Made by a program: the position numbers and the translations under genes
Notes under the pieces: model-generated
Told to the model about the DNA's origin: nothing
The model's database searches: none
What the model saw: only the letters and a program-made list of their open reading frames with translations
Part shown: positions 18,734-42,258 of the stretch, one piece after another
Numbering within the stretch: position 1 is the stretch's first letter
Layout: the number at the start of each line of letters is the position of its first letter
Assembly: GCA_977017645.1 (NCBI GenBank)
Contig: OZ360221.1
Span: 135,532,001-135,596,000 of the forward strand
From: Torpedo marmorata
Taxonomy: Eukaryota
Reading direction: 5' to 3'
Length of the DNA: 64,000 bases

Positions 18734-18957
18734 GAAGTAAAAAACACAAAAGCTGGAGAACTCAGCAGGTCAAACAGTGTCTTTTATGTAGCAAAGGTAG
18801 AAATACATAACCGACGTTTCAGGCTTGAGCCCTTCTTCAAAGTAGATACTTTGAAGAAGGGCTCAAGCCTGAAACGTCGGTTATGTATTTCTACCTTTGC
18901 TACATAAAAGACACTGTTTGACCTGCTGAGTTCTCCAGCTTTTGTGTTTTTTACTTC
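18734..18957. repeat. Inverted repeat (111-bp arms, 2-nt spacer) of a short Penelope-derived element
   Basis: 18734-18844 reads as the reverse complement of 18847-18957, with no mismatch found by eye. The left copy extends unpaired to ~18699. Confidence 0.9.
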
Positions 18958-22600: not shown

Positions 22601-22872
22601 CGAATAAAACATGATGGTCTACAGACACTGTAATTGAAGTAAAAACACAATGCTGGAGAAACTCGGCAGGTCAAACAGTGTACTTTATATAGCAAAGATA
22701 ATGATACATAACCAACGTTTCGGGCTTGAGCCCTTCATAAGGTACCTTTGATGAAGGGCTCATACCTTGATGAAGGGATCAAGCCTGAAACATTGGTTAT
22801 GTATCATTATCTTTGCTACATAAAGTAAACTCTTTGACCTGCTGAGTTTCTCCCGCATTGTGTTTTTTCTTC
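22601..22872. repeat. Imperfect fold-back of the same Penelope-derived element with duplicated TTGATGAAGGG centre
   Basis: Arm ~22636-22743 is the inverse of ~22763-22872. The centre contains TTGATGAAGGG twice. Confidence 0.85.
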
Positions 22873-22984: not shown

Positions 22985-23686
22985 AGAGAATATAGAACAG
23001 TACAGCACAGGAACAGGCCCTTCAGCCCACAATGTTCATACTGTACATGATGCCAATTTAACATTTTACATATCTGCCTGCACACAGACCATATCTGTCT
23101 ATTCCCTGTCTGTTTGTGTGCTGTCTAAATGCTTCTTAAATGTTGCCATTATATCTGCTTCCACCACTTCCCTGGCAGTGCATTTCAGGCACCTGCCACT
23201 CCATGTGTAAAACACTTTCCACGTAAATCTCCTCTAAACTTTCTCCCTTTCACCTTAAAGTTATGACCTCCAATTTTTGACATTTCTATCCTATCTATGC
23301 CTCTCATAATTTAGGGGAGACATTAGGAGTAAGTTACTTACACAGTGTGGGTGCCTGGAATGCCTTGCCAGGGATGGTGGTGGAGGCTGAAACATTAGGG
23401 GCATTTAAGAGACTTAGGCACATGGATGGAGGAAAAATAGAGGGTTACGGCGTAGGGAGGGTTGAGTATTTTTTAAGGAATATATGGGTCGGCACAACAT
23501 CGAGGGCCAAAGGGCCTGTACTGTGCTGTAGTGCTCTATGTTCTATGTTCTATCAGGCATCCTTCAGCCTCTGACACACCAGACAAAACAATCGAAGTTT
23601 ATCCAACTTCTTCTTATAGCTAATACTCTACATCCAGGCAGCATCCTGTTAAACCTCTGCACCATTTCTAAAGCCTCCACAGCCTT
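22985..23686 (-). mobile_element. CR1-type LINE 3' fragment (minus) with a nested plus-strand CR1 3' end (~23315-23553); continues at 35627-35945 after the BEL insertion
   Basis: (TAGAACA)-type tails occur in both orientations. ORF 35614-35796 (-) contains LEYCVQFWS. The sequence is continuous across the GCCTT TSD. Confidence 0.7.
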
Positions 23687-24294
23687 TGTAAGAGCCGTAG
23701 GCACAATAACTTACCTTGGTCGCGGTGCTCCGGTGCTTCGACGGGTTATGTAGGAGTCGCGATGTCTGTAGGCCGTCCTCGGCCTGTTCTGTGCTCTGCG
23801 CATGCGCTGGAGTGCCGACGGGCGCATGCGCAGTCTGGAATTGACGTCATTGTGTGCGGTGTATTGTGGGAGATGTAGTGTGCGCGGTGGAGCGTGCGCA
23901 ATGGAATAGGAGCGATGTGAGCATGCGCGAATCGGAAGGAATAGGATAAAGATGGCGACGTAGGAGGGTGAGTGAGATCGCCATATCTTTATTGACCGTT
24001 TCATAGCGTTTCATAGATAGTTTCATTGAACTTTTAAATTAGTTATTTTGTGGTTTAAAATCGTTTATTTGAACATCTAAATACAGTCTAAGGATTCATT
24101 TAAAGGAACTCATCATACATCGTTTTCAAGAACTGTTTATATTAAAGTGATTGAAGATTACTGCAAGTCACGTGTGTAAATAAAGTTTTTGAACATATTG
24201 GACTTTGTTGGTAAATTAATTGAAACGCGTCAAAGACAAGTATCTCACTTAGCCTCCAGGTGACTAAAGGTTGGATAGAAGTCACCATATTATA
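23687..24294 (+). repeat. 5' LTR of the BEL/Pao element
   Basis: Direct repeat of 35019-35626 (about 11 substitutions by eye). Starts TGT, ends TTATA, internal AATAAA. Confidence 0.93.
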
Positions 24295-24745
24295 GTCAAT
24301 AAAGTGGCTGTTTGGAACAGAAAATTGAAGGAACGAAGATAGAATAATCTCTCTGTGCTTTGGACTGATATTTAAAATAAAATGGTGGCCATCTTGAAGA
24401 TGCCTCGAGTTGGGGGCAGTTTGTAATCCACATCCATCTGCCATGAGTAACAGCCAGAGAGGGATTTAAAGCTTCAAATCTTATAGTAAAGTGTCCGATA
24501 AATACGTTGGAGAAACCATTTTTGGAAAATCAGTGATATTATTGACGGATGTTGTGGTTGAAACTCGTTTGTGGATAGCAGCACATTACAGTCATTTGAA
24601 GTGGTAGGCATAAGTCTGTGGACTCCTTCTGTGTATCTTTAGCAAGTAAGAACACAGATTGAAATTGCTGCCGCTGGTCCATTGGGGACTGTTGATTTGG
24701 CTAGTGTTGTGTATGCTTGAAGGACAGAGGAACAAGACGAGTAAA

Positions 24746-27700
24746 ATGGCCGCAGCAGCCTCTGATACAGCAGCTACTGATGTATCAGCAGCTAACGCAG
24801 CAACCGCTGATATTGCTGTTGAGGACCAATGTATTGAAGACATGAAGATTGCGGATATTAAAGAAGAATTGAAGCGACTGAAAAAGGACATAAGTGGAAA
24901 TAAAAAGGTTCTTATCGCAAGATTGAAGCTGGCAAAGGATGAAGAGGCAGCTTCATTAGATGAACAAGATGATAACTTGGAAATGGCTGAAATTGTGTCA
25001 CCAAATGATGAAGAAAATGTTGAAGAAATTGAAGAGGTTGAAGATGCAAAGGATATACAATTCGAATTGGATAAAGAGATAAGTATGAAGACAACATATG
25101 AACTGCAGGATGAAATACAAGCAAGTGACAGTGTCTCAAATGCTGAAAGCAGGAGAAGCAAAAGAAGTTCTGGTTCGAGCTCCAGAGTTTCTCGTACTTC
25201 AAGTTCTGCATCGTCACGTACAAAGATTGATGTTAAATTGGCCGGTTTTCTTGCACAACAAAAAACGCTTAAGGATAAATATATTTTAGAACAAGAGGAG
25301 GAGCAGCTAAGACAAAAGGAGGAGCAGCTAAGACAAAAGGAGGTGCAGCTAAAGGAGCAGCTAAGACAAGAGGAGGAGCAGCTAAGACAAAATGAGAAGC
25401 AGCTAATGGAGCAGCTAAGACAAGAGAAGGAGCAGCTAAGGCAGAGAAAAGAACAGCAGGAGCTGGAAGCAAACATTGCTATTGCCAAGGCAGAAAAGAA
25501 AGCAATAAAAGGCTCAATGGTATCTGGTGCTGGAAGTAAATTATCTAAATTGTCTGATAATAAAAGGTCATATTTAAAAAATGAGTCACAGGAAAAGAAA
25601 CCAACCAAAAGGATAGATATTTTAGAACCAAGGATACAAAACTTGCATATACAAGGACAAACCTTTCAAGAGCATATTGGTATCGAGTCACATGTACCAA
25701 TGGTAACATCTGAAAGCAAAGCTGCGGCTTGGGTTCGGTCGAATGAAGCAGCTTCTTTGTTATTTGAGTCAAGCATCAGAAATATGGAAGAAACTACACC
25801 AGTGAGGTTTCCAGATACATTGCATGCAACAAGAGACGGTGAACAGAGCAATGTATTGTCATCCAAGGAAAGACAAAATGAAATTGCTGCATCATTGTTT
25901 CAGTTACAGTCTCTCTCTTCTTTACCCAAGAAAGAGATACAAACTTTTGATGGTGATCCACTTCAGTATCAATCATTTATGAGATCTTTCAAACGCAATA
26001 TTGAAGATAAATGCCAAGATCGTGATGAATGTCTTTATTATTTGGAAATGTTCACAAAGGGACATCCAAAAGAACTGGTAAAGAGTTGTAAACAAATGTC
26101 TTCAGAAAGAGGATTAGACAAAGCTAAGGCTTTACTGGAACAATATTTTGGCAACAAGCATCGAATTGCTTTAGCTTATATAGATAAAGCTCTTAAATGG
26201 ACATCAATAAAACAAAATTATGTAAAGGCTCTGCAAGAATATACTCTGTTTTTAAGAGGATGTTGTAATGCTATGGAAGATATCGATAATATTCGTGAGC
26301 TTGAAGTGCATAGTAATATGCGAATCATCTTAGAAAAATTACCTTACAAGTTATGGGATAGATGGAGAAATTTGGCTTGTGATTTACAAGTAAATTACAG
26401 TCGAAAAACGACTTTAAAGGATTTGGTAAATTTTCTTGAACAACAGGTGTACGTTGAAACAGATCCACTATTTGGAAATACCAAAGATAATTCAATGGGC
26501 AAAGATGTAAGGAAGTCTAATTCACAGCCTAGTCCGAAATTGAAAAGGAGTACTTTTGCTACTAATGTGTCAGTTATAAGTAAAGAAAAGGACAAAGTAA
26601 ATAAGGAAAAGGAAAGTTTGCCTGATGAAAAGAGTTGTTTGTTCTGTAAAGGTGGACATGCTTTGGAAATGTGTTTACGATTAGAAAATAAGGAACATAA
26701 GGAAAAGATCGCTTTCTTAAAGGAAAATGGAATATGTTTTAGCTGTCTGTGTAAAGGGCACATCAGTAAAAACTGCAAGAAGCGAATTAATTGTAACATA
26801 TGCAATTTGAAACATCCTAGAATTTTGCATATCCATAACAGAAACAAGGAATTGGGAAAGGAGCAAACAGAAACAAAGGAAACAACAGAAAATAATGTTA
26901 TAACCTCAGTTCAGACAAGTGGTCTTACCGGGGCCGATGTGGATAACTGCAAACTTTCGATAGTACCTGTACAAGTCAAGACCAAGAAAGGGGATGCAAT
27001 AGTAAAAACATATGCATTTCTAGACCCAGGCAGCACTGCATCTTTTTGCACGGAAGGACTAATGAATAAACTTAATATTCAAGGAAGAAGATCAAGAATT
27101 ATGTTAAAAACCATGGGACAAGAAAAGGTTGTTGAAACTAACATTGTTTCAGGCTTAGAGGTTGCTGGATTGAAAGACAAAAAATTTTGTGATCTTCCAC
27201 GTTTATATACTCAGAAGACTATGCCTGTGCATGAAGGAAATATTCCTCATCAAAAGGATATCCATCATTTAGCTTATCTGTGGAAGGTTTATTTACCTGA
27301 AATTAATTCTGAGATAGAAATGCTGATTGGTTCAGATATGCCAAAGGCTTTGGAACCACAAGAAGTAATACAGAGTAAAAGGAATGGACCATACGCTATT
27401 AGAACCAAGTTTGGTTGGACAATCAATGGACCATTGGAAAGAAATAATGATATTGCTCAGGAACAGTTAGCGATAAATATTAATAGAATTTCGGTTGTGA
27501 AAGTTGAAGAGTTAAGCGAAGAGCAAAAAACTGTGAATAAGAAAATCACGTTTGAAGAAAAGAAAACAGGTCAATGTGAAAATAAATCAAGGATATTTAA
27601 AACAACATTGAAAGAATTATTTTCACCAAAAATGGATGAAAGTGAAGTATTAGAAGATTTTGCAAATAATACTATTGATTATTCATGTGTAATTGAATCA

Positions 27701-28180
27701 GATACAGGAATAAAACAAGTGACTGAAAACAAATCTGAATGTAGATTTTGTAGTTCAGAGATTACAACAGACAAAGCTAATGAAGAAATATTGCAATGTG
27801 ATGTAAAACTGGAGAACACAGAAAATTGTGCTGATGGAATAAAGAATAATGTGAATGATAATTTAATGCAATTGAATTCAGAGAACAAAATGTTGAAAGG
27901 GGAATTGGAAATATTAGATAATCAAGAAAACAGTAAACAGAAAGATTTAATTGTAAGTAAAACTCGCAAAGTCAGAAAGCGGAAGAAAAGAATAACTGCT
28001 GAAGAAATGAATACAGTTATTGAGGAAAGAGATTCAGCATTATCAAAATGTAAAAGGTTGGAGGAAGAGATTAATGTTTTAAAAGAGAACAAGTTATTGG
28101 TTAATAACACAAAACAGTTGATTACAAAAAACAATCAAGATTGTAAATTGAATGTTCAGCTATTAACAATGCAGAAATAA
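24746..28180 (+). CDS. BEL/Pao Gag-protease polyprotein: N-terminal SAP-like motif, coiled coil, DUF1759-like region, three zinc knuckles, aspartic protease, then a MIPOL1-like coiled-coil C-terminus
   Basis: The ORF is open from 24659, with a likely ATG at 24746. Motifs: FDGDPLQY, CLFCKGGH..C / CFSCLCKGH..C / CNICNLKH, AFLDPGS, PYAIRTKFGWTINGP and RITAEEMNTVIEERDSALSKCKRLEEE. Confidence 0.85.
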   Translation: MAAAASDTAATDVSAANAATADIAVEDQCIEDMKIADIKEELKRLKKDISGNKKVLIARLKLAKDEEAASLDEQDDNLEMAEIVSPNDEENVEEIEEVEDAKDIQFELDKEISMKTTYELQDEIQASDSVSNAESRRSKRSSGSSSRVSRTSSSASSRTKIDVKLAGFLAQQKTLKDKYILEQEEEQLRQKEEQLRQKEVQLKEQLRQEEEQLRQNEKQLMEQLRQEKEQLRQRKEQQELEANIAIAKAEKKAIKGSMVSGAGSKLSKLSDNKRSYLKNESQEKKPTKRIDILEPRIQNLHIQGQTFQEHIGIESHVPMVTSESKAAAWVRSNEAASLLFESSIRNMEETTPVRFPDTLHATRDGEQSNVLSSKERQNEIAASLFQLQSLSSLPKKEIQTFDGDPLQYQSFMRSFKRNIEDKCQDRDECLYYLEMFTKGHPKELVKSCKQMSSERGLDKAKALLEQYFGNKHRIALAYIDKALKWTSIKQNYVKALQEYTLFLRGCCNAMEDIDNIRELEVHSNMRIILEKLPYKLWDRWRNLACDLQVNYSRKTTLKDLVNFLEQQVYVETDPLFGNTKDNSMGKDVRKSNSQPSPKLKRSTFATNVSVISKEKDKVNKEKESLPDEKSCLFCKGGHALEMCLRLENKEHKEKIAFLKENGICFSCLCKGHISKNCKKRINCNICNLKHPRILHIHNRNKELGKEQTETKETTENNVITSVQTSGLTGADVDNCKLSIVPVQVKTKKGDAIVKTYAFLDPGSTASFCTEGLMNKLNIQGRRSRIMLKTMGQEKVVETNIVSGLEVAGLKDKKFCDLPRLYTQKTMPVHEGNIPHQKDIHHLAYLWKVYLPEINSEIEMLIGSDMPKALEPQEVIQSKRNGPYAIRTKFGWTINGPLERNNDIAQEQLAININRISVVKVEELSEEQKTVNKKITFEEKKTGQCENKSRIFKTTLKELFSPKMDESEVLEDFANNTIDYSCVIESDTGIKQVTENKSECRFCSSEITTDKANEEILQCDVKLENTENCADGIKNNVNDNLMQLNSENKMLKGELEILDNQENSKQKDLIVSKTRKVRKRKKRITAEEMNTVIEERDSALSKCKRLEEEINVLKENKLLVNNTKQLITKNNQDCKLNVQLLTMQK

Positions 28181-28818
28181 TGTGATATTGCATTGCAGAA
28201 ATGTAACAAGCAAGATGAAGAAATTTAAAAAATTCAAGTTTGCCACAACAGGATTGACAATGGAAATATCAATGTATCACATGATATTTTGACTTCAAAT
28301 CAAATTATTAATTTCTCAGAAAGAACTGAGACTGAATTGAAAGTTGCAAAATTGGATTTGGAATTGCAGGAAAGAGCAATAGAAACCAGAGTGGTTAAAC
28401 AGACCTGTTTAAAATCGAAAGGAACAGATAAATATTCAAATTCTAGTTCTAAGAGTTTAAATTCTTCACATGAGAAGTGGAATGCTGAAGAAAGGAATAA
28501 AGTGAAACGACATGCTGAAGAAGTGCCTTGTGTTAAATTCAAAAGAAAAACTGTATCTATTTTGTCTGAGGAAGATTTGAGGTTTACTGGTTGACATTTT
28601 TAACTCAAAGATTATGGAGATAAAAGAACTTTAAAGAGACATTGTGATTATTATGGATAATTCAACTTCAAGAAACTCCTGGTTGGGGGGGCGTGGCGTG
28701 ATGGCGTAGGTTGGAGTCGTGGAAATACACTCCTCCCACAGAATTAATTAAAAACTGTAATTTAAAACTTCATCTGATTGTTAAAAAATATTTAAAAGTT
28801 TTTGTTAAGAAACTAAGA

Positions 28819-30333
28819 ATGACTACAAGAAAAACCAAAGATCAGAAGACAAAGAAACCAGGGATTAAAGAAAATCGGATTCAAGAAGAAGATTGGCCTA
28901 CCGTAATGAAGGAGCCTCGGGACGAAGTTCCTCTCCCTCCACGAAAGATGCAGACGCGGCTGGGTAAGCCTGTAGTGACGCCAGCGCCGTCCTCTCGGGG
29001 AGCTGGGGAAGATGGCGCTGGTGCTCGGAAGAAAACGGGACTACAAAAAGAGGCGGACCTATCGCGCGTGCGCGAAATGACGCGCGCGATTGAAATACAA
29101 AGGGAGCTGTCAGCTTCAGCTGACAGCCTAAAAAAGTCATCCCGTTCGATTCAGTATATCGTTGGACAGGATGAATCTTCATCAGGTTCAACGGATTCAG
29201 AAGAAAAAGGAAGAAAGAAGATACTTTCTGTAGAAGATGATAGACGATCAGAAGAAATGGAGGGAGGGGAAAGAAATATTAGTGGAGGAGAAAAAGCTGA
29301 CTTGTTGCAAGGAAAACAAGAGATTTCAACTACTTTTGTTCAAGCACTGAATTATTTGACAGAGCAAGTATCTACAATGAATAAGCGTATTGAGAATGGA
29401 TTTAAAGGTATGGATACTAATTTTACACAATTTAATGAAGAAATAAAAGATATTAAATATAATTTGAAGAAATATTCTACTGTTGTGGATAAAGTTATAT
29501 TGAAAGTTCAGAAAGTTGAAGATGATGTTGAAGAATGTCGTAATGAAGTGGTGGATTGTAAAGATACGGTGGACAAAATGGAAAATACATTTACTGCCTG
29601 GGAACTGCAAAGAAATCAACTCTTACAAAAAGTAGATACATTGGAGAATCAAAGTCGTAGAAATAACGTTAAGATTGTGGGACTTCCAGAAGATTATGAA
29701 GGGCTAAATCCAACTGATTTTTTTCAAAAATGGATCCCAGACATTCTGGGTAAGGATAATTTTCCTTATGGTCTTGAATTGGATAGAGCCCATAGAGATA
29801 ACAGGAGGAAGCCATTTCCTGGACAAACGCCACGCTCAGTGTTGATCAGATGTCTTCGTTACCAGGATAAGGAAAAAATTTTGAGATTAGCAGTTCAGAA
29901 TGCGAGAGAGAGGAAAGCTCCATTGATTATTGATAAAAATAGAGTGTTTTTCTATGCTGATTTAAGTGCAGTAATATTTAAAAATCGGAAAGAATTTAAT
30001 CCAGCTAAAGCAATCTTTTGGAATAAGGGTTACAGATTTTCTTTTAGATATCCCGCAATATTGAAGGTTCAATTGCGAGACAATCAATCAAAATTTTTTG
30101 CGGACTGCCAAGAAGCTTTGGAATATGCTAACAATCTACCGAATATAAAACAAGATCAAGATGTGTCTGGACATTCTCAAGTTAACATGCCTGTTAATCC
30201 ATTTGTTCAAGATTTGCTACATTTGACCGAGAATCTCCAAGTACGTCCAAGAAGAGATGAACTGGTGGAATTAATCGAGGATCTGTCCGATGAACAAGTT
30301 AATAAGGATTTGGAAGAAGCTGCATTTAGATGA
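28819..30333 (+). CDS. L1 ORF1p (coiled coil, RRM and CTD; Transposase_22-like)
   Basis: LENQSRRNNVKIVGLPE, ELDRAHR, PRSVLIRCLRYQDKEKIL, FYADLS and YPAIL. First ATG at 28819. Confidence 0.9.
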   Translation: MTTRKTKDQKTKKPGIKENRIQEEDWPTVMKEPRDEVPLPPRKMQTRLGKPVVTPAPSSRGAGEDGAGARKKTGLQKEADLSRVREMTRAIEIQRELSASADSLKKSSRSIQYIVGQDESSSGSTDSEEKGRKKILSVEDDRRSEEMEGGERNISGGEKADLLQGKQEISTTFVQALNYLTEQVSTMNKRIENGFKGMDTNFTQFNEEIKDIKYNLKKYSTVVDKVILKVQKVEDDVEECRNEVVDCKDTVDKMENTFTAWELQRNQLLQKVDTLENQSRRNNVKIVGLPEDYEGLNPTDFFQKWIPDILGKDNFPYGLELDRAHRDNRRKPFPGQTPRSVLIRCLRYQDKEKILRLAVQNARERKAPLIIDKNRVFFYADLSAVIFKNRKEFNPAKAIFWNKGYRFSFRYPAILKVQLRDNQSKFFADCQEALEYANNLPNIKQDQDVSGHSQVNMPVNPFVQDLLHLTENLQVRPRRDELVELIEDLSDEQVNKDLEEAAFR

Positions 30334-30606
30334 AGAATTGACATTAATTGTTATGTTTATTCTGTTGGGAGGGGTGGACTTTTTCTTGTCTGCTCCGTAC
30401 CTAACCACACACCACTTTAGTGGCGAGGGCCACTTCCCGAACAGAAGAGGGGGGTTATACTGGTGTAGTACCAGTTATTTTATATAGGGGTTTTTTTAAT
30501 ATTCTTTTTTCTTTCTTTTCTTTGTTTAAGGAGATGTCAGATTTATTACAAATGTGGAAGGGGGAACCGCCTGGTCTGATGAGGAGAGAATTATTAAATA
30601 ATAGTA

Positions 30607-33600
30607 ATGGCAGATAGTAAATTAATAAATGTTGTAAGTATTAATATAAATGGGCTAAATAATCCGATTAAACGGAAAAGAACATTGGCATATATTAAAA
30701 AGTTAAAAGTTGATATTGCTTTTTTGCAAGAGACGCATTTGACAGATGTAGAACATCAGAAATTGAAGAGAGATTGGGTTGGTCAAGTGATTGCGTCTTC
30801 ATTTAATTCTAAAGCAAAAGGAGTCGCTATTTTAATTAATAAAAAATTACCTTTTAAGTTACAGTCTATGGTATTAGATGTTTCAGGAAGATATGTTTTA
30901 ATAAATTGTCAGATATATTCGGAAATGTGGACACTTATGAATATATATGTGCCAAATACGCAAGATGAACAATTTATTCAAGATTCTTTTCTGCATTTAT
31001 CAGAAGCAAATGAGAATATTCTAATTGGGGGGGACTTCAATTGTTGTTTAGATCCAATACTAGACAAAACATCCAAATCAATAGTTAGAACCAAAATTGC
31101 AAAGAAAATTCTTTCTTTGATGAAGGACTTGAATTTAGTTGATATTTGGAGAAAGTTGAATCCAAGAGAAAAAGACTATTCCTTTTATTCTTTTAGACAC
31201 GATTCTTATTCTAGAATAGATATGTTTTTATTGTCATCTCATTTACAAGATAGAGTTACTGAAATACAATATAAAGCAAGAATAATTTCTGACCATTCGC
31301 CCTTAATAATGTCATGTATAATTCCGGAAAAAGAGAAAATGACATATAGATGGAGATTTAATTCTTCTTTATTGAAAAGACCAGATTTTTGTAATTATAT
31401 AAGAAGAGAAATTCATGAATTTTTACAGATTAATTCTAATTCAATGGATAATAAATTTATTATTTGGGACACTTTAAAAGCTTATTTAAGAGGTCAAATA
31501 ATAAGTTATTCAGCAAAGGTCAAAAAGGAATATACTCAAGAATTAGATAAATTGGAGAAGGAGATTGAATTTTTGGAGAAAGATTTACAAAAGAGAAAAT
31601 CAGAAGAAAAAAAGAGGAATTTAATTGGAAAGAAATTGTATTATAATACACTGCAAACATATAAAATGGAAAAAGTAATTGAAAGAACTAAACAAAGATA
31701 TTATGAACTGGGTGAAAGAGCACATAAAGTATTGGCATGGCAATTAAAAAAAGAACAAACTTCTAGAACTATAAATGCTGTAAAAAAGAATTCAAAGAAA
31801 ATATCGTTTAAACCTCGGGAAATAAATGATTCTTTTAGGGAATTTTATTTAAATTTATATAAATCTCAAACTGATAAAGATGATTTTAAAGTGAATCTGT
31901 TTTTATCTAAGATTAAATTGCCTAGATTGAATACTCGAAGTAAGGAATTTTTAGATTCAACATTTACGATGAGAGAAGTTAATGAGGTCCTTAGTTCTTT
32001 AGCAAATGGGAAATCTCCAGGTGAAGATGGTTTCCCACCAGAATTTTATAAGGAATTTAAAGATTTATTGATACCCCCATATATGGAGGTATTAAAACAA
32101 ATAATGGAAACTCATTCTTTACCGGAAACATTTTCTAATGCAATAATAACAGTTATACCAAAAAAAGATAGAGATCCGTTGAAAACAGAATCATATAGAC
32201 CAATTTCATTGTTAAATGTGGACTATAAGATAATGGCGAAAATATTAGCAAATAGACTTGCTAAATATTTACCAGATTTAATTCATGAAGATCAAGCAGG
32301 TTTTATTAAGAATAGATATTCAAAAGATAATATAGCTAGGTTAATTAGTTTAATTAATGTGGCACAAAAGAAAGAGGAATTATCATTAGTATTAACACTA
32401 GATGCTGAAAAGGCTTTTGACAGATTAGAGTGGAATTATTTATTTAAAGTATTGGAAAAATTTGGTTTTGGAACTACATTTATTAATTGGATTAAAACTA
32501 TATATAAAGAACCCTCTGCTAGGGTGGTTACAAATGGACAAATTTCTTCTAAGTTTTTGTTGACTAGGTCGACACGACAAGGGTGTCCGTTATCACCCGC
32601 ATTATTTGTTTTAGCAATTGAACCTTTGGCGGAATTAATTAGACAAGATATTAAGATTGCGGGTATTAAAGTTGGAAATGAAGAACATAAGATTAATTTA
32701 TTTGCAGATGATGTATTGATATATATGACAAAACCTATTACTTCTTTAATACATTTGGATGTTATATTGAAGGAATATGGAGAGATTTCTGGTTATAAAA
32801 TCAATTCCGATAAAAGTGAAATTATGGCATTAACACAAGGTGATTATAGTAAATGTAAAGAAATTACACAATTTAAATGGTCAAACGAAGGAATTAAATA
32901 TTTAGGTATAAAGATAGATACTAAACTAGCCAACTTATATAAATTAAATTATTTACCATTATTTGCGAAAATTAAAAAAGATTTGGAAAGTTGGAAGGAT
33001 TTACCTATAACTTTATTAGGAAGGGTAAATTGTATTAAAATGAATATCTTTCCAAGGATTCAATATCTTTTTCAATCAATTCCATATGAAATTCCTCAGA
33101 AATTTTTTAAAGATTTAAATTTTATTATTAGGAAGTTTTTGTGGAAAGGTAAATTGGCTAGAGTAGCTATGGAAAAATTAACTTGGAATTATGAATTGGG
33201 TGGATTACAACTGCCTAATTTCCAAAATTATTATAAAGCAGCTCAATTATGGTTTATTAATGAATTGTTGGATTTAACAAAAGATTCGGCGTGGATCCGA
33301 ATAGAATTAAATAATATAGGAGAAGATTTGAAGGAAGAAGTTATTTATAAATGGAATTCTAAATTAATATTGATAAGTGGTAAAAATTCTCCTATTTTTA
33401 AACATTTATTAGAAATATGGAATAGATTGGATAAAGAGATAGGAGCGAAAGGTTTAATTTCGCCAAATATGCCTTTATATCAAAATAGACTTATTCCATT
33501 TGCTTTTAATAATCAGTTATTTAAAATTTGGTTTCAAAAGGGAATTAAGAATGTAAATGATTGTTTTGAAGCTGGTAAATTTATTACTTTTCAAAGAATG

Positions 33601-34401
33601 AAAGATAAATTTAATATATTAAATAATACATATTTTGCCTATTTCCAAATTAAAGCTTTTTTAGTTGAAAAACTGGGTCCTAGTTTGGTTTTACCTCGAC
33701 AAAGTGAATTTGAATTATTAGTTATAAATGGAGGTGTAAATAAATTTATCTCTCAAATGTATAAATTATTACAGAGGAAAATGCCCAAGGTAGCAATTCA
33801 TAAATCAAGATTAAAATGGGAATTAGATTTGAATGTAACTATAGAAGAAAAACATTGGAAAGAATTATGTAAGTTAAGTATGACTAAAATTATTAATGTC
33901 AGATATAGATTAGTGCAATATAATTTTTTTCATCAATTATATCTAACACCTAAAAAACTAAAGAAATTTAATCCAGCGTTATCAGATATGTGTTTTAGAT
34001 GTAATGGGGAAGAAGGTTCTTTTGTACATTCTACTTGGTTTTGTCCAAAGATTCAGGATTTTTGGTTTAAGGTTAAGGAATTTTTAGACAAAGTATTAAG
34101 AAATATACTCCCAATGGATCCGATGATATTTTTATTTGGAGATATTAAAAGAATTAGTATTATGATGAATTTAAATATGTATCAAATTGAGTTTTTGAGA
34201 ATTGCTTTAGCTGTTGCTAAGAAATGTATTGCTATCACTTGGAAATCTGATGTAGATTTAGGTTTAGAAAGGTGGCACGCAGAACTTCGTTCTTGTATAC
34301 CACTTGAAAAAATTACTTATAATTTACGTAACAAATATCATTTCTTTTTGAAAATATGGAGCCCATATATAAAAGCGGTTGACTTAAAAATAAAAATTTG
34401 A
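30607..34401 (+). CDS. L1 ORF2p (APE endonuclease, RT, zinc knuckle), intact 1264 aa
   Basis: NINGL, FLQETH, GGDFN, SRID, SDH, KSPGEDG, YRPISLLN, LDAEKAFD, TRQGCPLSP, LFADD and CFRC..H..WFCP. Confidence 0.96.
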   Translation: MADSKLINVVSININGLNNPIKRKRTLAYIKKLKVDIAFLQETHLTDVEHQKLKRDWVGQVIASSFNSKAKGVAILINKKLPFKLQSMVLDVSGRYVLINCQIYSEMWTLMNIYVPNTQDEQFIQDSFLHLSEANENILIGGDFNCCLDPILDKTSKSIVRTKIAKKILSLMKDLNLVDIWRKLNPREKDYSFYSFRHDSYSRIDMFLLSSHLQDRVTEIQYKARIISDHSPLIMSCIIPEKEKMTYRWRFNSSLLKRPDFCNYIRREIHEFLQINSNSMDNKFIIWDTLKAYLRGQIISYSAKVKKEYTQELDKLEKEIEFLEKDLQKRKSEEKKRNLIGKKLYYNTLQTYKMEKVIERTKQRYYELGERAHKVLAWQLKKEQTSRTINAVKKNSKKISFKPREINDSFREFYLNLYKSQTDKDDFKVNLFLSKIKLPRLNTRSKEFLDSTFTMREVNEVLSSLANGKSPGEDGFPPEFYKEFKDLLIPPYMEVLKQIMETHSLPETFSNAIITVIPKKDRDPLKTESYRPISLLNVDYKIMAKILANRLAKYLPDLIHEDQAGFIKNRYSKDNIARLISLINVAQKKEELSLVLTLDAEKAFDRLEWNYLFKVLEKFGFGTTFINWIKTIYKEPSARVVTNGQISSKFLLTRSTRQGCPLSPALFVLAIEPLAELIRQDIKIAGIKVGNEEHKINLFADDVLIYMTKPITSLIHLDVILKEYGEISGYKINSDKSEIMALTQGDYSKCKEITQFKWSNEGIKYLGIKIDTKLANLYKLNYLPLFAKIKKDLESWKDLPITLLGRVNCIKMNIFPRIQYLFQSIPYEIPQKFFKDLNFIIRKFLWKGKLARVAMEKLTWNYELGGLQLPNFQNYYKAAQLWFINELLDLTKDSAWIRIELNNIGEDLKEEVIYKWNSKLILISGKNSPIFKHLLEIWNRLDKEIGAKGLISPNMPLYQNRLIPFAFNNQLFKIWFQKGIKNVNDCFEAGKFITFQRMKDKFNILNNTYFAYFQIKAFLVEKLGPSLVLPRQSEFELLVINGGVNKFISQMYKLLQRKMPKVAIHKSRLKWELDLNVTIEEKHWKELCKLSMTKIINVRYRLVQYNFFHQLYLTPKKLKKFNPALSDMCFRCNGEEGSFVHSTWFCPKIQDFWFKVKEFLDKVLRNILPMDPMIFLFGDIKRISIMMNLNMYQIEFLRIALAVAKKCIAITWKSDVDLGLERWHAELRSCIPLEKITYNLRNKYHFFLKIWSPYIKAVDLKIKI

Positions 34402-34680
34402 AGATCTCTGAACATTGGATCAGACTGGTGAACCTAATTTCCACAAAATTTAGTTTATAGTTATTCTTATTGTAGATTGACATTCTCCTTAGTTTATCTT
34501 TTTCTTTTCTTTACTTTATTTTATTTTATAGATTAGTAGGGGTGGGGGGGTTAGGGTGGGGAGGGTGGTTGGGAGGGAGAAAATATATCACATGTATTTT
34601 GATAATTTTGCAATTTATACAATGTATTTTGTGATTTAAAATTTTAAATAAAATATTTAAAAAAAAAGAAACTCCTGGTT

Positions 34681-34813
34681 ACTTGGAAAAATTATTGAGA
34701 CTTTTCAAGACAAAAAGTGACTTGTGCGTCAAGTGCGAATTAAAACTAAGACTGGTTTTCTAAACAGACCTATTAACAAGGTCTGTCTTTTGTTGGAGAC
34801 AGAGGAACTTTGA
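34681..34813 (+). pseudogene. C-terminal remnant of BEL/Pao integrase (DUF5641-like), split by L1; 5' part at ~28620-28684
   Basis: Joined across the TSD it reads DIVIIMDNSTSRNSWLLGKIIETFQDKK*LVRQVRIKTKTGFLNRPINKVCLLLE, matching the typical BEL end (PR..W.LGRI..D..G.VR.V.VKT..RP..K.CLL). Confidence 0.8.
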
Positions 34814-35018
34814 TAAATATAAACTGACTTTATTTGTTGTTGTATACTTCACAGGTTACAGACTTTTGTTGATTCAGAGTTATGGTAAACTCTGGGTTTA
34901 TGAAGAAGGAAGAAAGAAGATTTGTATATTGTTTGAATGTTATGGTTATTGTTATTTATAATTTATAGTGTAATTATTATTTAAGACATTGCGTCTAATT
35001 ATAATAATTAGGGGCCAG

Positions 35019-35626
35019 TGTAAGAGCCGTAGGCACAATAACTTACCTTGGTCGCGGTGCTTCGGTGCTTCGACGGGTTATGTAGGAGTCGCGATGTCTG
35101 TAAGCCGTCCTCAGCCTGTTCTGTGCTCTGCGCATGCGCTGGAGTGCCGACGGGTGCATGCGCAGTCTGGAATTGACGTCATTATGCGCGGTGTATTGTG
35201 GGAGATGTAGTGTGCGCGGTGGAGCGTGCGCAATGGAATAGGAGCAATGTGAGCATGCGCGAATCGGAAGGAATAGGATAAAGATGGTGACGTAGGAGGG
35301 TGAGTGAGATCGCCATATCTTTATTGACCGTTTCATAGCGTTTCATAGATAGTTTCATTGAACTTTTAAATTAGTTATTTTGTGGTTTAAAATCGTTTAT
35401 TTGAACATCTAAATACAGTCTAAGGAATCATTTAAAGGAATTCATCATACATCGTTTTCAAGAACTGTTTATATTAAAGTCATTGAAGATTACTGCAAGT
35501 CACGTGTGTAAATAAAGTTTTTGAACATATTGGACTTTGTTGGTAAATTAATTGAAACGCGTCAAAGACAAGTATCTCACTTAGCCTCCAGGTGACTAAA
35601 GGTTGGATAGAAGTCACCATATTATA
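35019..35626 (+). repeat. 3' LTR of the BEL/Pao element
   Basis: Preceded by AATTAGGGGCCAG (PPT) and followed by the GCCTT TSD. Confidence 0.93.
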
Positions 35627-36015
35627 GCCTTCCTATAATATAGTGACCAGAACTGCACACAATACTCCAAATTTGGCCAAACCAAGGTTTTATGCAGCCA
35701 CAACCTGACTTCCTGACTTTCATACACAATTCCCTGACCAATAATGGCAAGTATGCCGTATACGTTCTTTACCATCCTATCTATTTGGATTGCCACACTC
35801 AGGAAGCTTATGGACTTGCATCCTCAATAAGTATCCTGCCGTTTATGGTAGACTTTCATAATACATTTAACCCCCCCCCCCCCAAAGTGCATCACCTCAC
35901 ACTTGATCATATTGAACTCTATTTGACATTTCTATGCCCACATTTCTATAGAGTAGAGCCAGAGAAAAGAGTAATTTGTTGGTACATCTCCAGTACTCTT
36001 TGATGTACGTATCTC

Positions 36016-38268: not shown

Positions 38269-38783
38269 TAACCACTGCTGCATTCTGATAATGAACTTTG
38301 TGGCAGGTTTGAGGTTTTGAACTTTGAACATTCTTTTCCTCAGGTGGCTAAAAGCTGTTTTAATCACTGGAGGCAGTGTGACCTTCATCATCAATGTCTG
38401 CTTTTGCTGAGAGATGGCTCCCGAGATATGGAATGTCATAAGGATATAAGTACCAGAAGCAAGAGTAGGCTACACAGCCCCTCACATCACAATATCATTC
38501 AGTAAGATCAAAACTGATCTCTTATCTCAGTGGCATTTTATGTACCAAAATCAGCCCTTGATATCCAAAAATCTACATTTGATGATGAAAGGATGAAGTA
38601 CCCGGCCGAGTATTAAAAATTTGTGCTGACCAACTTATCAATTTATTCATGGATAACTTCAACATCTCACTCCGGCAGGGCGTAGTACTCACCTGTTTCA
38701 AACAGGCGTCAATCGTACCGGTGCCCAAGAACAGTGTGGTAACCTACCTAAATGACTATCGACCTTAACAGTGATGAAGTATT

Positions 38784-41700
38784 ATAAAGCAAGAATAATT
38801 TCTGATCATTCGCCTTTATTAATGTCTTGTATAATTCCATAAAAAGAAAAACTATATATAGGTGGAGATTTAATTCCTCTTTATTAAAAAGAATGGATTT
38901 TTGTGATTATATAAGAAGAGAAATTCAAGAATTTTTACAGATTAATTCTAATTCGATTGATAATAAGTTTATTATTTGGGAAGCTTTAAAGGCTTATTTA
39001 AGAGGCCAAATAATAAGTTATTCAGCAAACGTTAAGAAGGAATATGTTTGGGAGGTGGATAATTTGGAGAGGGAGATTGAATTCTTGGAGAAGGACTTGC
39101 AAAAAAATAGATCAGAAGAAAAGAGGAAAAATTTAATTGGGAAAAAATTGCATTATAATATGTTACAAACATATAAAATGGAAAAATTAATTGAAAGAAC
39201 TAAGCAAAGATATTATGAATTGGGAGAAAGAGCACATAAAGTGTTGGCGTGGCAATTAAATAAAGATCAAACCTCTAGAACTATAAATGCTATAAAAAAG
39301 AATTCTAAGAAAATAACATATAAACCTCGAGATATAAATGATTCTTTTAAGGATTTTTTATTTGAACTTATATAAATCTCAGATTGATAAAGGTGATTCT
39401 AAAATTAATCAATTTTTATCTAAAATTAAGTTACCTAGATTAAATACTCAAAGTAAAGAATTTTTAGATTCGTCTATTTCAATGAGGGAAGTTAATGATG
39501 TTCTCAGTTCTTTAACGAGTGGTAAATCTCTAGGGGAGGATGGTTTCCCATCAGAATTTTATAAGGAGTTTAAAGATTTATTGATACCTCCGTATATGGA
39601 TGTGTTGAAACAAATAACGGAAACTCATTCGTTACCGGAAACATTTTCGAATGCAATAATTACAGTTATACCTAAAAAAGATAGAGATGTGTTGAAAACA
39701 GAATCATATAGACCAATTTCATTGTTAAATGTGGATTATAAGATAATGGCAAAAATTTTAGCAAATAGTGGCTAATTATTTACCAGATTTAATCCATGTA
39801 GATGAAGCTGGTTTTATTAAGAATAGATATTCAAAAGATAATATAGCTATATTAATTAGTTTAATTAATGTGGAAAAAAAAGATGACTTGGCATTAGTAT
39901 TAACATTAGATGCTGAAAAGGCTTTTGATAGATTAGAGTGGAATTATTTATTTAAAGTATTGGGGAAATTTGGTTTTGGAACTACATTTATTAATTGGAT
40001 TAAAACTATTTATAAAGAACCATCTGCTAAAGTGGTGACATATGGACAAATCTCTTCAAAATTTTCTTTGACTAGGTCAACTAGACAAGGATGTCCTTTG
40101 TCGCCAGCATTGTTTATTTTAGCAATAGAACCTTTGGCAGAACTAATTAGACAAGATATTAAGATTGCAGGTATTAAAGTTGGAAGAGAAGAGCATAAAA
40201 TCAGTTTATTTGCAGATGTATTGATTTATATGACAAAACCTATTACTTCTTTAACACAATTGACTGTTTTATTGAGAGAATATGGGGAAATATCTGGTTA
40301 TAAGATTAATTCTGATAAAAGTGAAATTGTGGCATTGACACAAGGGGATTATAGTAAATGTAAAGAAATTACACAATTTAAATGGTCAAAGGAAGGAATT
40401 AAATATTTGGGAATAAAGATTGATACAAAATTAGCTAATTTATATAAATTAAATTATTTACCATTATTTATGAAAATTAAAAAGGATTTAGAAAGTTGGA
40501 AGGACTTATCTATAACTTTAATAGGAAGGGTAAACTGTATTAAAATGAATGTCTTTCCAAGAATTCAATATCTTTTTCAATCAATTCCTTACAAAATCCC
40601 TTTGAAATTCTTCAAGGATTTAAATTTAATTATTAGGAAGTTTTTGTGGAAAGGAAAGTTGGCTAGAGTAGGTATGGAGAAGTTAACTTGGAAGTATGAA
40701 ATGGGTGGTTTGCAACTTCCTAATTTTCAAAATTATTATAAAGCAGCTCAATTAAAATTTGTTAATGAAATGTTTGATTTAGCTAAATCTTCTGCTTGGA
40801 TTGGAATAGAACTAAATAATATAGGAGAAGATTTGAAAGAAGTTATTTCTAAATGGAATTCTAAATTATTATTAATAAAAGGGAAGAATTCTCCTATTTT
40901 TAAACATTTGTTAGAAATATGGAATAGAGTGGATAGGGAGATAAGAGGGAATGGGTCGATTTCTCCAAAAATGTCTTTATATCAAAATAAACTTATTCCA
41001 TTTACTGTTGATAATCAATTATTTAAAATTTGGTTCCAAAAGGGAATTAAGAAAATAAATTATTTTTTTGAAGCTAGTAAATTTATTACTTTTCAAAGAA
41101 TGAAAGATAAGTTTAATGTATTGAACAATACACTTTTTGCTTATTATCAAATTAGAGCATTTTTAGTTGGGAAGTTAGGTTATAGTTTGACTTTACCAAG
41201 ACAGAGTGAATTGGCATTATTAGTTACTAATGGAGGTGTAAATAAATTTATTTCTCAAATGTATAGATTGTTTCAGAGAAAAATCCCTAAAGTAGGAATT
41301 CATAAATCAAGATTAAAATGGGAATCAGATTTGAATGTAACAATAGATGAAGAACATTGGAAAGAATTATGTAAACTAAGTATGACAAAAATTATTAATG
41401 TTAGATATAGATTAGTTCAATATAATTTTTTTCATCAATTATATTTAATGCCTAAAAAATTAAAGAAATTTAACGCGACATTATCAGGCTTATGTTTTAG
41501 ATGTAATAGAGAGGAAAGTTCTTTTGTACATTCTACATGGTTTTGTCCAAAGATATATGATTTTTGGTTGAAAGTTAAAACATTTTTAGATAAAGTATTG
41601 ATGATATTTTTGTTTGGAGATATTAAAAGAATTAGTATTAAGATGAAATTAAATATGTATCAAATAGAATTTTTGTGAATTGCTTTAGCTGTTTCTAAGA

Positions 41701-42258
41701 AATGCATTGCTATTACTTGGAAATCTGATGTAGATTTAGGGTTAGAAAGATAGCATGCAGAACTTCGTTTATGTATACCACTTGAAAAAATTACTTATAA
41801 TTTACGTAATAAATATCATTTCTTTTTGAAAATATGGAGCCCATATATAAAAACTGTTGGTTTAAGGATGTGAAGATCTCTGGATATCAGATCTGACTGG
41901 CGAACCTATCTTCCACAATAAAATCAGTTTATAGTTCTTCTTTTTAAGATTGANNNNNNNNNNNNNNNNNNNNNNNNNNNNNNNNNNNNNNNNNNNNNNN
42001 NNNNNNNNNNNNNNNNNNNNNNNNNNNNNNNNNNNNNNNNNNNNNNNNNNNNNNNNNNNNNNNNNNNNNNNNNNNNNNNNNNNNNNNNNNNNNNNNNNNN
42101 NNNNNNNNNNNNNNNNNNNNNNNNNNNGGGGTGGGAGGGTTAGGGAGGGGAGGGAGGGGGGTGAAAATTTATCACGTATTTTGATAATTTCATATTTTAT
42201 TTTATGTATTTTGTGATTTAAAAATTTTAAATAAAATATTTAAAAACAAAAAAACAAA
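38784..42258 (+). mobile_element. 5'-truncated L1-clade LINE, ORF2 with frameshifts and stops
   Basis: ORFs 38827-39375, 39338-39775 and 39768-41678 match ORF2. 17-bp TSD AACAGTGATGAAGTATT (38767-38783, 42259-42275). Confidence 0.92.
41954..42127. other. Assembly gap
   Basis: Run of N inside the L1 3' UTR. Confidence 1.

Follow-up and report, generated by a model that had tools for sequence, protein, structure and literature searches.

Capture of BRCA1, MIPOL1, and Elongin A pieces, one of them back-spliced, by a non-autonomous BEL/Pao retrotransposon family

A BEL/Pao element with host coding sequence in place of its pol core

The window, a stretch of 64,000 nucleotides, contains a non-autonomous BEL/Pao LTR retrotransposon (23687-35626, split by a full-length L1) whose RT/RNase H/integrase core has been swapped, in frame with Gag-protease, for intron-less sequence from the host genes BRCA1, MIPOL1, and Elongin A (ELOA). 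This is a case of LTR-mediated gene capture that is multi-gene, back-spliced, in frame, and in BEL/Pao. Copies of the element fall into two groups: group A is older and host-like, with 92-98% identity to the host exons, whereas group B, to which the window copy belongs, is younger and diverged (~83% identity to host). Taken jointly, the observations are probably explained by a non-autonomous BEL/Pao element that captured BRCA1, MIPOL1, and Elongin A sequence through template switching, with a likely circular MIPOL1 template, and that has kept its frame open while the captured amino acids drifted.

The window copy is flanked by a 5-bp target-site duplication (TSD; GCCTT, 23682..23686 and 35627..35631). 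Its LTRs (23687..24294 and 35019..35626, plus strand) are 608 bp long, end in TG...TA and not TG...CA, and are 98.2% identical (11/608 nt differ), matching the ~2% difference given in the initial annotation. The open reading frame runs from stop to stop over 24650-28180 (1176 aa), with its first ATG at 24746, and starts with BEL/Pao Gag and aspartic protease (24746..27520, plus strand), as assigned from profile matches and reading of the sequence. Within this region are a SAP domain of Gag (~24833-24928, Pfam), DUF1759 of Gag (~25946-26368; E 2.3e-5, just below the Pfam cut-off), Gag Cys/His knuckles read by eye (~26630-26830), and a DUF1758-like aspartic protease (~26981-27424; E 0.006, just below the cut-off). 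Pfam over the entire ORF returned SAP only, and there is no RT downstream of the protease, as had been annotated.

Beyond the captured pieces lies a remnant of the BEL integrase C-terminus (DUF5641), the first part of which (28613..28684, plus strand) is out of frame with the fusion. A later L1-type LINE (28685..34665, plus strand; ORF1 543 aa, ORF2 1267 aa) has inserted here with a 15-bp TSD (28670-28684 and 34666-34680), and the rest of DUF5641 (E 2.9e-6, above the cut-off), the 3' UTR, and the polypurine tract follow at 34681..35018 (plus strand). Of the BEL/Pao hallmarks, the element has DUF1759, the triple Cys/His knuckle, a DUF1758-type protease, and DUF5641 at the integrase C-terminus. 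The PR-RT-RH-IN pol with Peptidase_A17 that characterizes autonomous members is missing here but present in a 70%-identical relative (G000:C40:64.517-64.523 Mb), and for this reason the element is a non-autonomous derivative, as first proposed.

Origin of the three captured pieces

The initial annotation described a single host gene, MIPOL1, joined in frame to Gag-protease. MIPOL1 is indeed present and in frame, although it makes up only ~450 nt of the insert (27943-28393) and is preceded by BRCA1 and followed by Elongin A. The BRCA1-derived piece (27522..27950, plus strand) is the end of a 148-nt exon spliced to the start of the large central exon, with 80-85% nucleotide identity to the host BRCA1 locus (G000:C61:25.488-25.497 Mb). 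It is followed by the 3' part of MIPOL1 exon e with exons f and g, spliced and from the coiled-coil region (27943..28248, plus strand), and then by the 5' part of exon a and, after an in-frame deletion of 81 nt, exon b (28249..28393, plus strand). The ELOA-derived piece (28393..28612, plus strand) has 79-87% nucleotide identity to the host ELOA locus (G000:C41:38.99-39.01 Mb). All three pieces are in their native frame with Gag-protease.

A protein search with 27911-28177 matched MIPOL1 proteins only (6/81 candidates; best E 8.6e-24, 70% identity), and the top ESM Atlas clusters are MIPOL1. These MIPOL1-only matches and the exon mapping rule out a generic coiled coil. Pfam on 27941-28591 gave no MIPOL1 family match; the database entries of the MIPOL1 proteins matched by 27911-28177 list PF27918 and PF27921. 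A protein search with 28397-28591 gave 21 candidates, none at E<=10, and the ELOA identity of this part was recognized solely via group-A copies.

Capture of a spliced host mRNA had been suggested, and the splicing is borne out: the MIPOL1 match crosses exon junctions at which the host has introns, of 29 kb and 78 kb, that are absent from the element. In group A, the pieces cross 3 BRCA1, 5 MIPOL1 (one of them a back-splice), and 4 ELOA junctions, and the host sequence is intron-less and partial, with both LTRs kept. Because introns are gone from every junction, insertion of genomic host DNA is ruled out. The joins between genes and between gene and BEL fall mid-exon and share 2-6 nt, as seen against a single BEL reference that is 75-80% identical. 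The A-richness noted earlier for the captured part (A 0.43, GC 0.30) is mostly inherited from host exons, which are already at A 0.40 and GC 0.38. In group A, a linker of ~16 nt lies between MIPOL1 exon c and ELOA; its best BEL match is 20/33 nt, inside the shuffle range (mean 18.8, max 22), and lies ~100 nt ahead of the rejoin point.

A back-splice junction in MIPOL1

By tblastn, MIPOL1 ~452-548 comes first in the insert and ~295-372 afterwards. This reversal had been taken as a shuffled order, but it is an exact back-splice (28248..28249, plus strand) joining the donor of exon g to the acceptor of exon a, which lies 206 kb upstream in the host gene. The g-a junction is exact in 21/22 group-A loci holding exon g. 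At one copy, 30/30 nt match the end of exon g and 30/30 the start of exon a, compared with 8/30 for the normal next exon h. The host-identical 16-nt junction has 319 exact matches genome-wide and its control has 0.

The precision of this junction points to a circular RNA and not the linear mRNA originally envisaged, and the MIPOL1 piece was likely copied from such a circle, judging from the sequence. Host exons a-g add up to 780 nt, counting exon d as 34 nt, and begin and end in phase 2. The introns flanking them are 50 and 62 kb, and long introns at such positions are in keeping with back-splicing. The captured piece does not extend outside exons a-g and falls short of one lap of the circle, and neither exon h nor the large upstream exon had a match in the 32 group-A loci fetched, so that the MIPOL1 sequence there is confined to the circularized exons. 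Inverted repeats in the flanking introns were set aside as evidence because they are no commoner than direct repeats (59 inverted vs 65 direct matches).

A linear source is an improbable alternative, under which the g-a join would have come from repeated exons, from trans-splicing, or from a short-lived tandem duplication within MIPOL1. A linear transcript with repeated exons, or an exon duplication that has since disappeared, would leave an identical junction, a genomic fossil cannot distinguish circular from linear templates, and non-colinear junctions can arise by other routes (Dong et al. 2016, PMC4897178). Against this, each exon occurs once in host-type form across 400 kb of the host MIPOL1 locus, with no exon a downstream of g, and exons c-e matched one locus when searched against the whole genome; the confinement to less than one lap and the long flanking introns also speak for the circle.

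With a circular template, host RNAs co-packaged with the element would serve as templates, and template switching during reverse transcription would likely pick up the host pieces. RT would enter the 780-nt MIPOL1 circle in exon e, cross the back-splice, and exit near the start of exon c before completing a lap. The junction would then record a MIPOL1 circle likely made in the germline long ago. A literature search found no paper on "circMIPOL1" and no title or abstract opening describing this BEL/Pao family; the supplements of Dong et al. 2016 and Tan et al. 2016 may list comparable cases.

Copy number and spread of the family

The proposal that the chimera had spread as a family is well supported. 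The derived junction has 9,472 exact matches in the genome and its control has 0, an LTR pair at 90.6-99.7% identity was found in 26/40 copies fetched with flanks, and 5-bp TSDs are visible at other family copies. Thousands of dispersed, LTR-bounded copies with TSDs thus exist, produced by secondary rounds of retroposition, which rules out a single-copy accident. The host-like group A junction has 319 matches vs 9,472 for the derived one, with search patterns that differ. LTR pairs of group A were recovered at 2/20 loci (90.8% and 91.5%), too few for dating.

RT and integrase would be borrowed from RT-bearing BEL relatives. Those scored are decayed, and no helper was found among the 150 of 31,857 candidates scored, in which the longest open frame was 727 aa. 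Contigs of four runs with four other organism labels, none of them recorded as RNA, cover 27-30 of 30 bins. Gene annotation, read mapping, and circRNA calling in these genomes will all be disturbed by fragments resembling BRCA1, MIPOL1, and ELOA, which number in the thousands.

The frame is kept while the amino acids drift

The family reading frame closes at or soon past 28594, in the ELOA piece. The window copy has two stops within its MIPOL1 piece, at 28178 and 28226 (the second had been placed at ~28206), and as anticipated they are not family-wide but private or recurrent. Carriers of the 28226 stop (7 among 63 tree rows) are scattered over at least 6 places in the tree, which rules it out as a sublineage trait.

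The frame has been preserved through ~17% divergence. Along the amplified lineage, 0 stops were fixed vs 10.4 simulated (0/1000 simulations), stop-making C>T changes stand at 0/19 vs 27/101 for missense C>T changes, and fixed deletions in B vs A are multiples of 3 in 7/7 cases, while shared indels past the stop do shift the frame. The stop:missense ratio is 1:114 among shared variants vs 31:287 among private ones (p=0.0007). For the amino acids, the host-to-B dN/dS of the captured pieces is 0.75 vs 0.71 for simulated neutral evolution; that of the MIPOL1 part against the host gene is 1.27 (simulated neutral range 0.41-1.29), and for all three pieces the value is inside the neutral range or at its limit. 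Stops and frameshifts have been excluded along the amplified lineage while the amino acids drift about neutrally. This suggests that selection is likely to act on translation of the element's own RNA and not on host-protein function.

Missense variants in the insert are mildly depleted among shared variants within group B, where the ratio is 0.51 against 0.88 in private variants (p=0.012, or p=0.045 once CpG columns are left out), and the tail is therefore not wholly free to vary. This depletion would fit selection on the protein, with the fused tail as a functional domain (acidic spacer, coiled coil, and basic NLS-like stretch) for particle assembly or nuclear entry. The coiled-coil length is likewise unchanged save for a deletion in a single sublineage, the basic stretch (27956-27991) has more Lys/Arg than its host counterpart and is identical in 44/71 copies, and a MIPOL1 dN/dS at the top of the neutral range could mean adaptation. 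However, the overall dN/dS from host to B is what neutrality predicts, a bias toward G>A and C>A by itself raises Lys content, sublineages amplified after deletions of 45 nt (11 of 71 copies) or 24 nt (8 of 71), and group B has lost the Elongin A domain (part of PF06881) that group A carries. We regard a functional tail as possible but rather unlikely.

Much less likely still is that the captured fragments spread via small RNAs that either target host BRCA1, ELOA, or MIPOL1 for silencing or protect the element itself from being silenced. BRCA1 restricts retroelements, and the closeness of group A to the host exons would suit such a role. The Drosophila TART/nxf2 case provides a precedent for capture-driven anti-silencing with higher copy number (PMC13534243). 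This leaves selection on the frame unexplained, however, and the host-like group is the less numerous one, as counted with the two different patterns. The successful group B is down to 83% host identity, close to the 79-82% at which almost no host-targeting piRNAs are described in the same paper (PMC13534243).

Returning to selection on translation, we lean slightly toward the view that the frame is held open by a need to translate the element's own unspliced RNA, for escape from nonsense-mediated decay or for cis capture. The unspliced RNA would need translation to near its 3' end, keeping the frame open, and translation through the insert would either evade nonsense-mediated decay or allow capture in cis by the element's own Gag-protease fusion. 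The host-derived tail would be mostly translatable spacer and would not function as BRCA1, MIPOL1, or Elongin A. With thousands of replicates, the family is a natural experiment that separates open-frame selection from protein-sequence selection in a non-autonomous element.

Comparison with known captures and fusions

In acutely transforming retroviruses, a host coding sequence takes the place of pol as an in-frame fusion to gag, and replication relies on a helper. The initial annotation drew an analogy to such oncogene transduction. The in-frame host-gag fusion in place of pol is shared, but the window family has no env, its copies are germline, and fragments were captured instead of whole domains. 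The analogy finds no support, because the MIPOL1 residues show no sign of purifying selection and large parts have been deleted in frame; we see a mild within-family signal only and, unlike in gag-onc viruses, no sign of conserved captured-protein function.

A closer likeness for the open frame is mouse IAP 1-Delta-1, also a non-autonomous LTR element keeping an in-frame fusion ORF. That ORF is reported in a review to act in cis, the element out-transposing its helper (PMC6466679), which gives the cis-capture reading a precedent. The IAP fusion is gag-pol and arose via deletion, whereas the C-terminal part of the window element is host-derived and drifts near-neutrally.

For multi-gene capture, maize Bs1 combines three host parents in one element and a mouse case four (Tan et al. 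2016, PMC5131818). As in the window element, part of the internal ORF in these retrocopies is replaced by partial intron-less host RNA pieces from several parents, and we count as further likenesses the pieces often in frame and the secondary retroposition (PMC5131818). The microsimilarity at joins in those retrocopies may have a counterpart in the 2-6 nt shared at the joins here. The window family differs in being BEL/Pao, from a cartilaginous fish, and in at least 9,472 copies, in having all three pieces in native frame with Gag-protease through its divergence, and in the back-splice within one piece; "circ" is absent from the main text of PMC5131818.

For the back-splice, the comparison is with the mouse circRFWD2 pseudogenes, of which 33 high-confidence copies are described (Dong et al. 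2016, PMC4897178). Both have a genomic non-colinear exon junction that has been multiplied, lacks poly(A), and is LTR-associated. That paper did not settle how circRNAs come to be copied into the genome, and its LTRs were enriched in the flanks only (PMC4897178). In the window family, the back-spliced piece is enclosed in a defined LTR element, between mid-exon, template-switch-like joins and in frame with Gag-protease, which ties the junction to LTR template switching. A bolder reading would be that a circular RNA template-switched into an LTR element, where it came to be translated and selected as part of one of the most abundant mobile families in a vertebrate genome, with the tri-gene tail a new cis-acting module explaining how group B out-amplified its host-like ancestor many times over; this we hold to be doubtful. 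The window family has ~300 times more copies than the circRFWD2 pseudogenes described in PMC4897178.

Structure of the element

The BEL/Pao LTR retrotransposon at 23687-35626 is a single unit with 608-bp LTRs, which differ from each other at 11 positions, and a GCCTT target duplication. Its long ORF (24650-28180) encodes a SAP domain, a DUF1759-like Gag, Cys/His knuckles, and a DUF1758-like protease. As the initial annotation had observed, the pol core is absent and host-derived sequence is joined to the Gag-protease ORF. A full-length L1 with a 15-bp TSD occupies 28685-34665, and the DUF5641 remnant of the element is located after it. RT, Peptidase_A17, integrase, and DUF5641 are all found in a decayed relative with ~70% identity across Gag-protease. 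Since this RT-bearing relative has domains that are missing here, the window element is a non-autonomous BEL/Pao derivative.

The SAP DNA-binding domain lies at the Gag N-terminus (24833-24928; E 1.5e-6, above the cut-off). A QEEEQLRQK-like 21/33-nt tandem repeat in Gag (25278-25460) apparently differs in number of units between copies. Both ORFs of the L1-type LINE are open (543 and 1267 aa) and its A-tail is present; partial relatives with ~86% identity are found at 1-1711 and 38783-41953.

Three host genes in the insert

Protein search matched 27911-28177 to MIPOL1 only, in agreement with the top ESM Atlas clusters, and 27590-27940 to BRCA1 only, with 3 matches among 157 candidates and a best E of 1e-30. 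The host genes were found in the same genome, with MIPOL1 on contig C40, BRCA1 on C61, and Elongin A (ELOA) on C41. Proteins most similar to the genes of this genome come from rays, which apparently makes it that of a cartilaginous fish. Exon-by-exon mapping of the window copy onto these genes, at 78-91% identity, placed the BRCA1 piece at 27522-27950, the MIPOL1 piece at 27943-28393, and the ELOA piece at 28393-28612. No intron sequence is carried in these three pieces, and the MIPOL1 match crosses exon junctions. The earlier interpretation is thus partly supported and extended: MIPOL1 identity, spliced capture, spread, and non-autonomy stand, while MIPOL1 as the sole host source does not, since BRCA1 and ELOA are also present. 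A second Elongin A-like gene (G000:C25:175318134-175337050) has 75-77% identity to the captured exon and is not the ELOA donor.

Copy number and two groups of copies

A 29-nt pattern over the derived junction had 9,472 exact matches in the 6.2-Gb genome (4,753 + 4,719; control 0), a lower bound on copies, which bears out the proposal that the chimera spread as a mobile family. Forty copies were drawn from a position-ordered list and fetched with flanks. LTR pairs were obtained in 26 of these, one further pair having been thrown out as not LTR, and their identities of 90.6-99.7% indicate that amplification was long-lasting and continued until recent times. An unbroken frame of 1,250-1,307 codons runs through the insert in 6 of the 40. 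The insert is also covered by contigs from four runs that bear the labels of other organisms.

A search with a BRCA1 stretch missing from the window uncovered older, host-like copies (group A), mostly 90-98% identical to host exons. We fetched 32 such loci (27 without re-fetches), picked from BRCA1 and PF06881 match lists, partly for long open frames. Every locus not truncated or internally deleted has the same layout: BEL protease and RT start, four BRCA1 exons, MIPOL1 exons e-f-g-a-b (exons lettered a-h in transcription order), ~20 nt of exon c, a short linker, five ELOA exons including PF06881, and the BEL integrase end. All three host pieces are in sense orientation and native frame, and in one natural copy they are read through without a stop. 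The younger, diverged group B, to which the window copy belongs, is ~83% identical to host and shorter. One group-B copy sits within a group-A copy (L077), and five lie within 400 kb of sequence at the host MIPOL1 locus. Relative to the one A copy that was aligned in detail, B retains a longer part of the integrase end, which suggests that A and B are sister lineages or that B recombined with a helper.

The element also forms a tandem array (G000:C1:1498507-1518391, L122-L126), in which five matches to the group-B junction recur every 4,964 bp. In L080 and other copies of group A, the ~16 nt that link MIPOL1 exon c to ELOA may derive from the integrase end of BEL; if so, ELOA was captured at a separate site. 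Nine nt at the start of the BRCA1 large exon are missing from the host gene (G000:C61:25488548 region, L109), though database protein P0007 retains them, as do the window copy and several copies of group A; host BRCA1 therefore changed after capture, and this difference is a possible dating marker.

A back-splice in the MIPOL1 piece

The MIPOL1 order had been described as shuffled. The order is indeed reversed, through an exact exon g-to-a back-splice rather than a loose shuffle. In the host, a GT donor closes exon g (C40:64385712), and exon a, which lies 206 kb upstream of exon g in transcription order, follows an AG acceptor at C40:64591881. In element copies the first base of exon a directly follows the last base of exon g. 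One group-A copy matches g and a at 30/30 and 30/30 positions around the junction; for h, the exon that normally comes next, the figure is 8/30. Of 22 group-A loci holding exon g, 21 have the exact join and the remaining one has a 5-nt insertion. A 16-nt junction sequence identical to that of the host exons was counted 319 times genome-wide (control 0). Exons a-g sum to 780 nt, and as both ends are in phase 2, the reading frame is preserved across the join. The span taken from MIPOL1 begins within exon e and ends early in exon c, less than one lap and confined to exons a-g, and 400 kb of sequence at the host locus has a single host copy of each exon. The simplest reading of this arrangement is that a circular RNA would have been the template of the MIPOL1 piece.

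The acceptor of exon a is a tandem NAGNAG (G000:C40:64591881, L043), with the proximal site in the back-splice and the distal one apparently in database protein P0001.

Tests of selection on frame and protein

The stops of the window copy are not family-wide. That at 28178 recurs in 1 of 50 other copies and in none of 71 copies picked by position, a set that excludes the window's 19 top matches as well as 4 tandem repeats; that at 28226 is found in 8 of the 71, scattered over the tree. Between host and B, no fixed stops were observed versus 10.4 expected (0 of 1000 simulations), and C>T changes made stops at 0/19 sites versus missense at 27/101. The seven B-vs-A deletions (285, 24, 120, 81, 195, 3, and 111 nt), judged over four A copies, are all multiples of three; gaps that shift the frame in single comparisons either occur in one copy only or lie where the frame ends. 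Within B, indels in the insert are in frame in 5/6 shared versus 12/51 private cases, and shared indels past the stop shifted the frame freely.

Could the host-derived tail have a true function? Shared variants within B are missense-depleted in the insert (0.51 vs 0.88, p=0.012), which counts against a purely neutral tail, and the same measure is lower in Gag core (0.31) and protease (0.34). Against this, host-to-B dN/dS, comparing host codons with the commonest codon per column (342 codons, 71 copies), is 0.75, versus 0.71 (0.51-1.05) when neutral evolution was simulated with CpG taken into account; the single genes have 0.53 (BRCA1), 1.27 (MIPOL1), and 0.56 (ELOA). Gag and protease remain under constraint. 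The tail has to remain translatable, though both drift and large deletions are tolerated in it. We consider such a function doubtful. Small-RNA anti-silencing by captured fragments, as described in PMC13534243, is very improbable. Over both rivals we lean toward the view that the frame of the element stays open because translation of its own RNA is under selection. Such selection could act via NMD escape or cis-capture by the element's own Gag fusion; a review (PMC6466679) reports a comparable cis-acting fusion for IAP 1-Delta-1.

Origin and relation to known systems

The joins between pieces are mid-exon with 2-6 shared letters, a candidate counterpart of the microsimilarity at joins in the retrocopies of Tan 2016 (PMC5131818). 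Host RNAs were likely packaged together with the BEL genome and copied as reverse transcription switched from one template to the next. Gag and protease were retained in the chimera, and RT and integrase would have to be borrowed. RT-bearing BEL relatives are abundant in the genome; among those scored (150 of 31,857 candidates), no helper element was identified.

Multi-gene capture by LTR elements (Bs1, Tan 2016, PMC5131818) and pseudogenes that derive from circRNAs and are flanked by LTR-rich sequence (Dong 2016, PMC4897178, and a review) are already known, and the element is therefore no new category. Its novelty lies in bringing together an exact back-splice inside a defined LTR element, three host genes whose native frame continues that of Gag-protease, a family of about ten thousand copies, and selection at the level of the frame through 17% divergence. 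No earlier description of the family was found in literature titles and abstract starts.

Other repeats in the window

Near-perfect palindromes at 18734-18957 and 22636-22872 consist of ~100-nt repeat copies head-to-head, with 111-nt arms, 100% complementary, and a 2-nt spacer. Another LTR retroelement lies in fragments at 53455-56718, with Gag-like and integrase-end-like ORFs.
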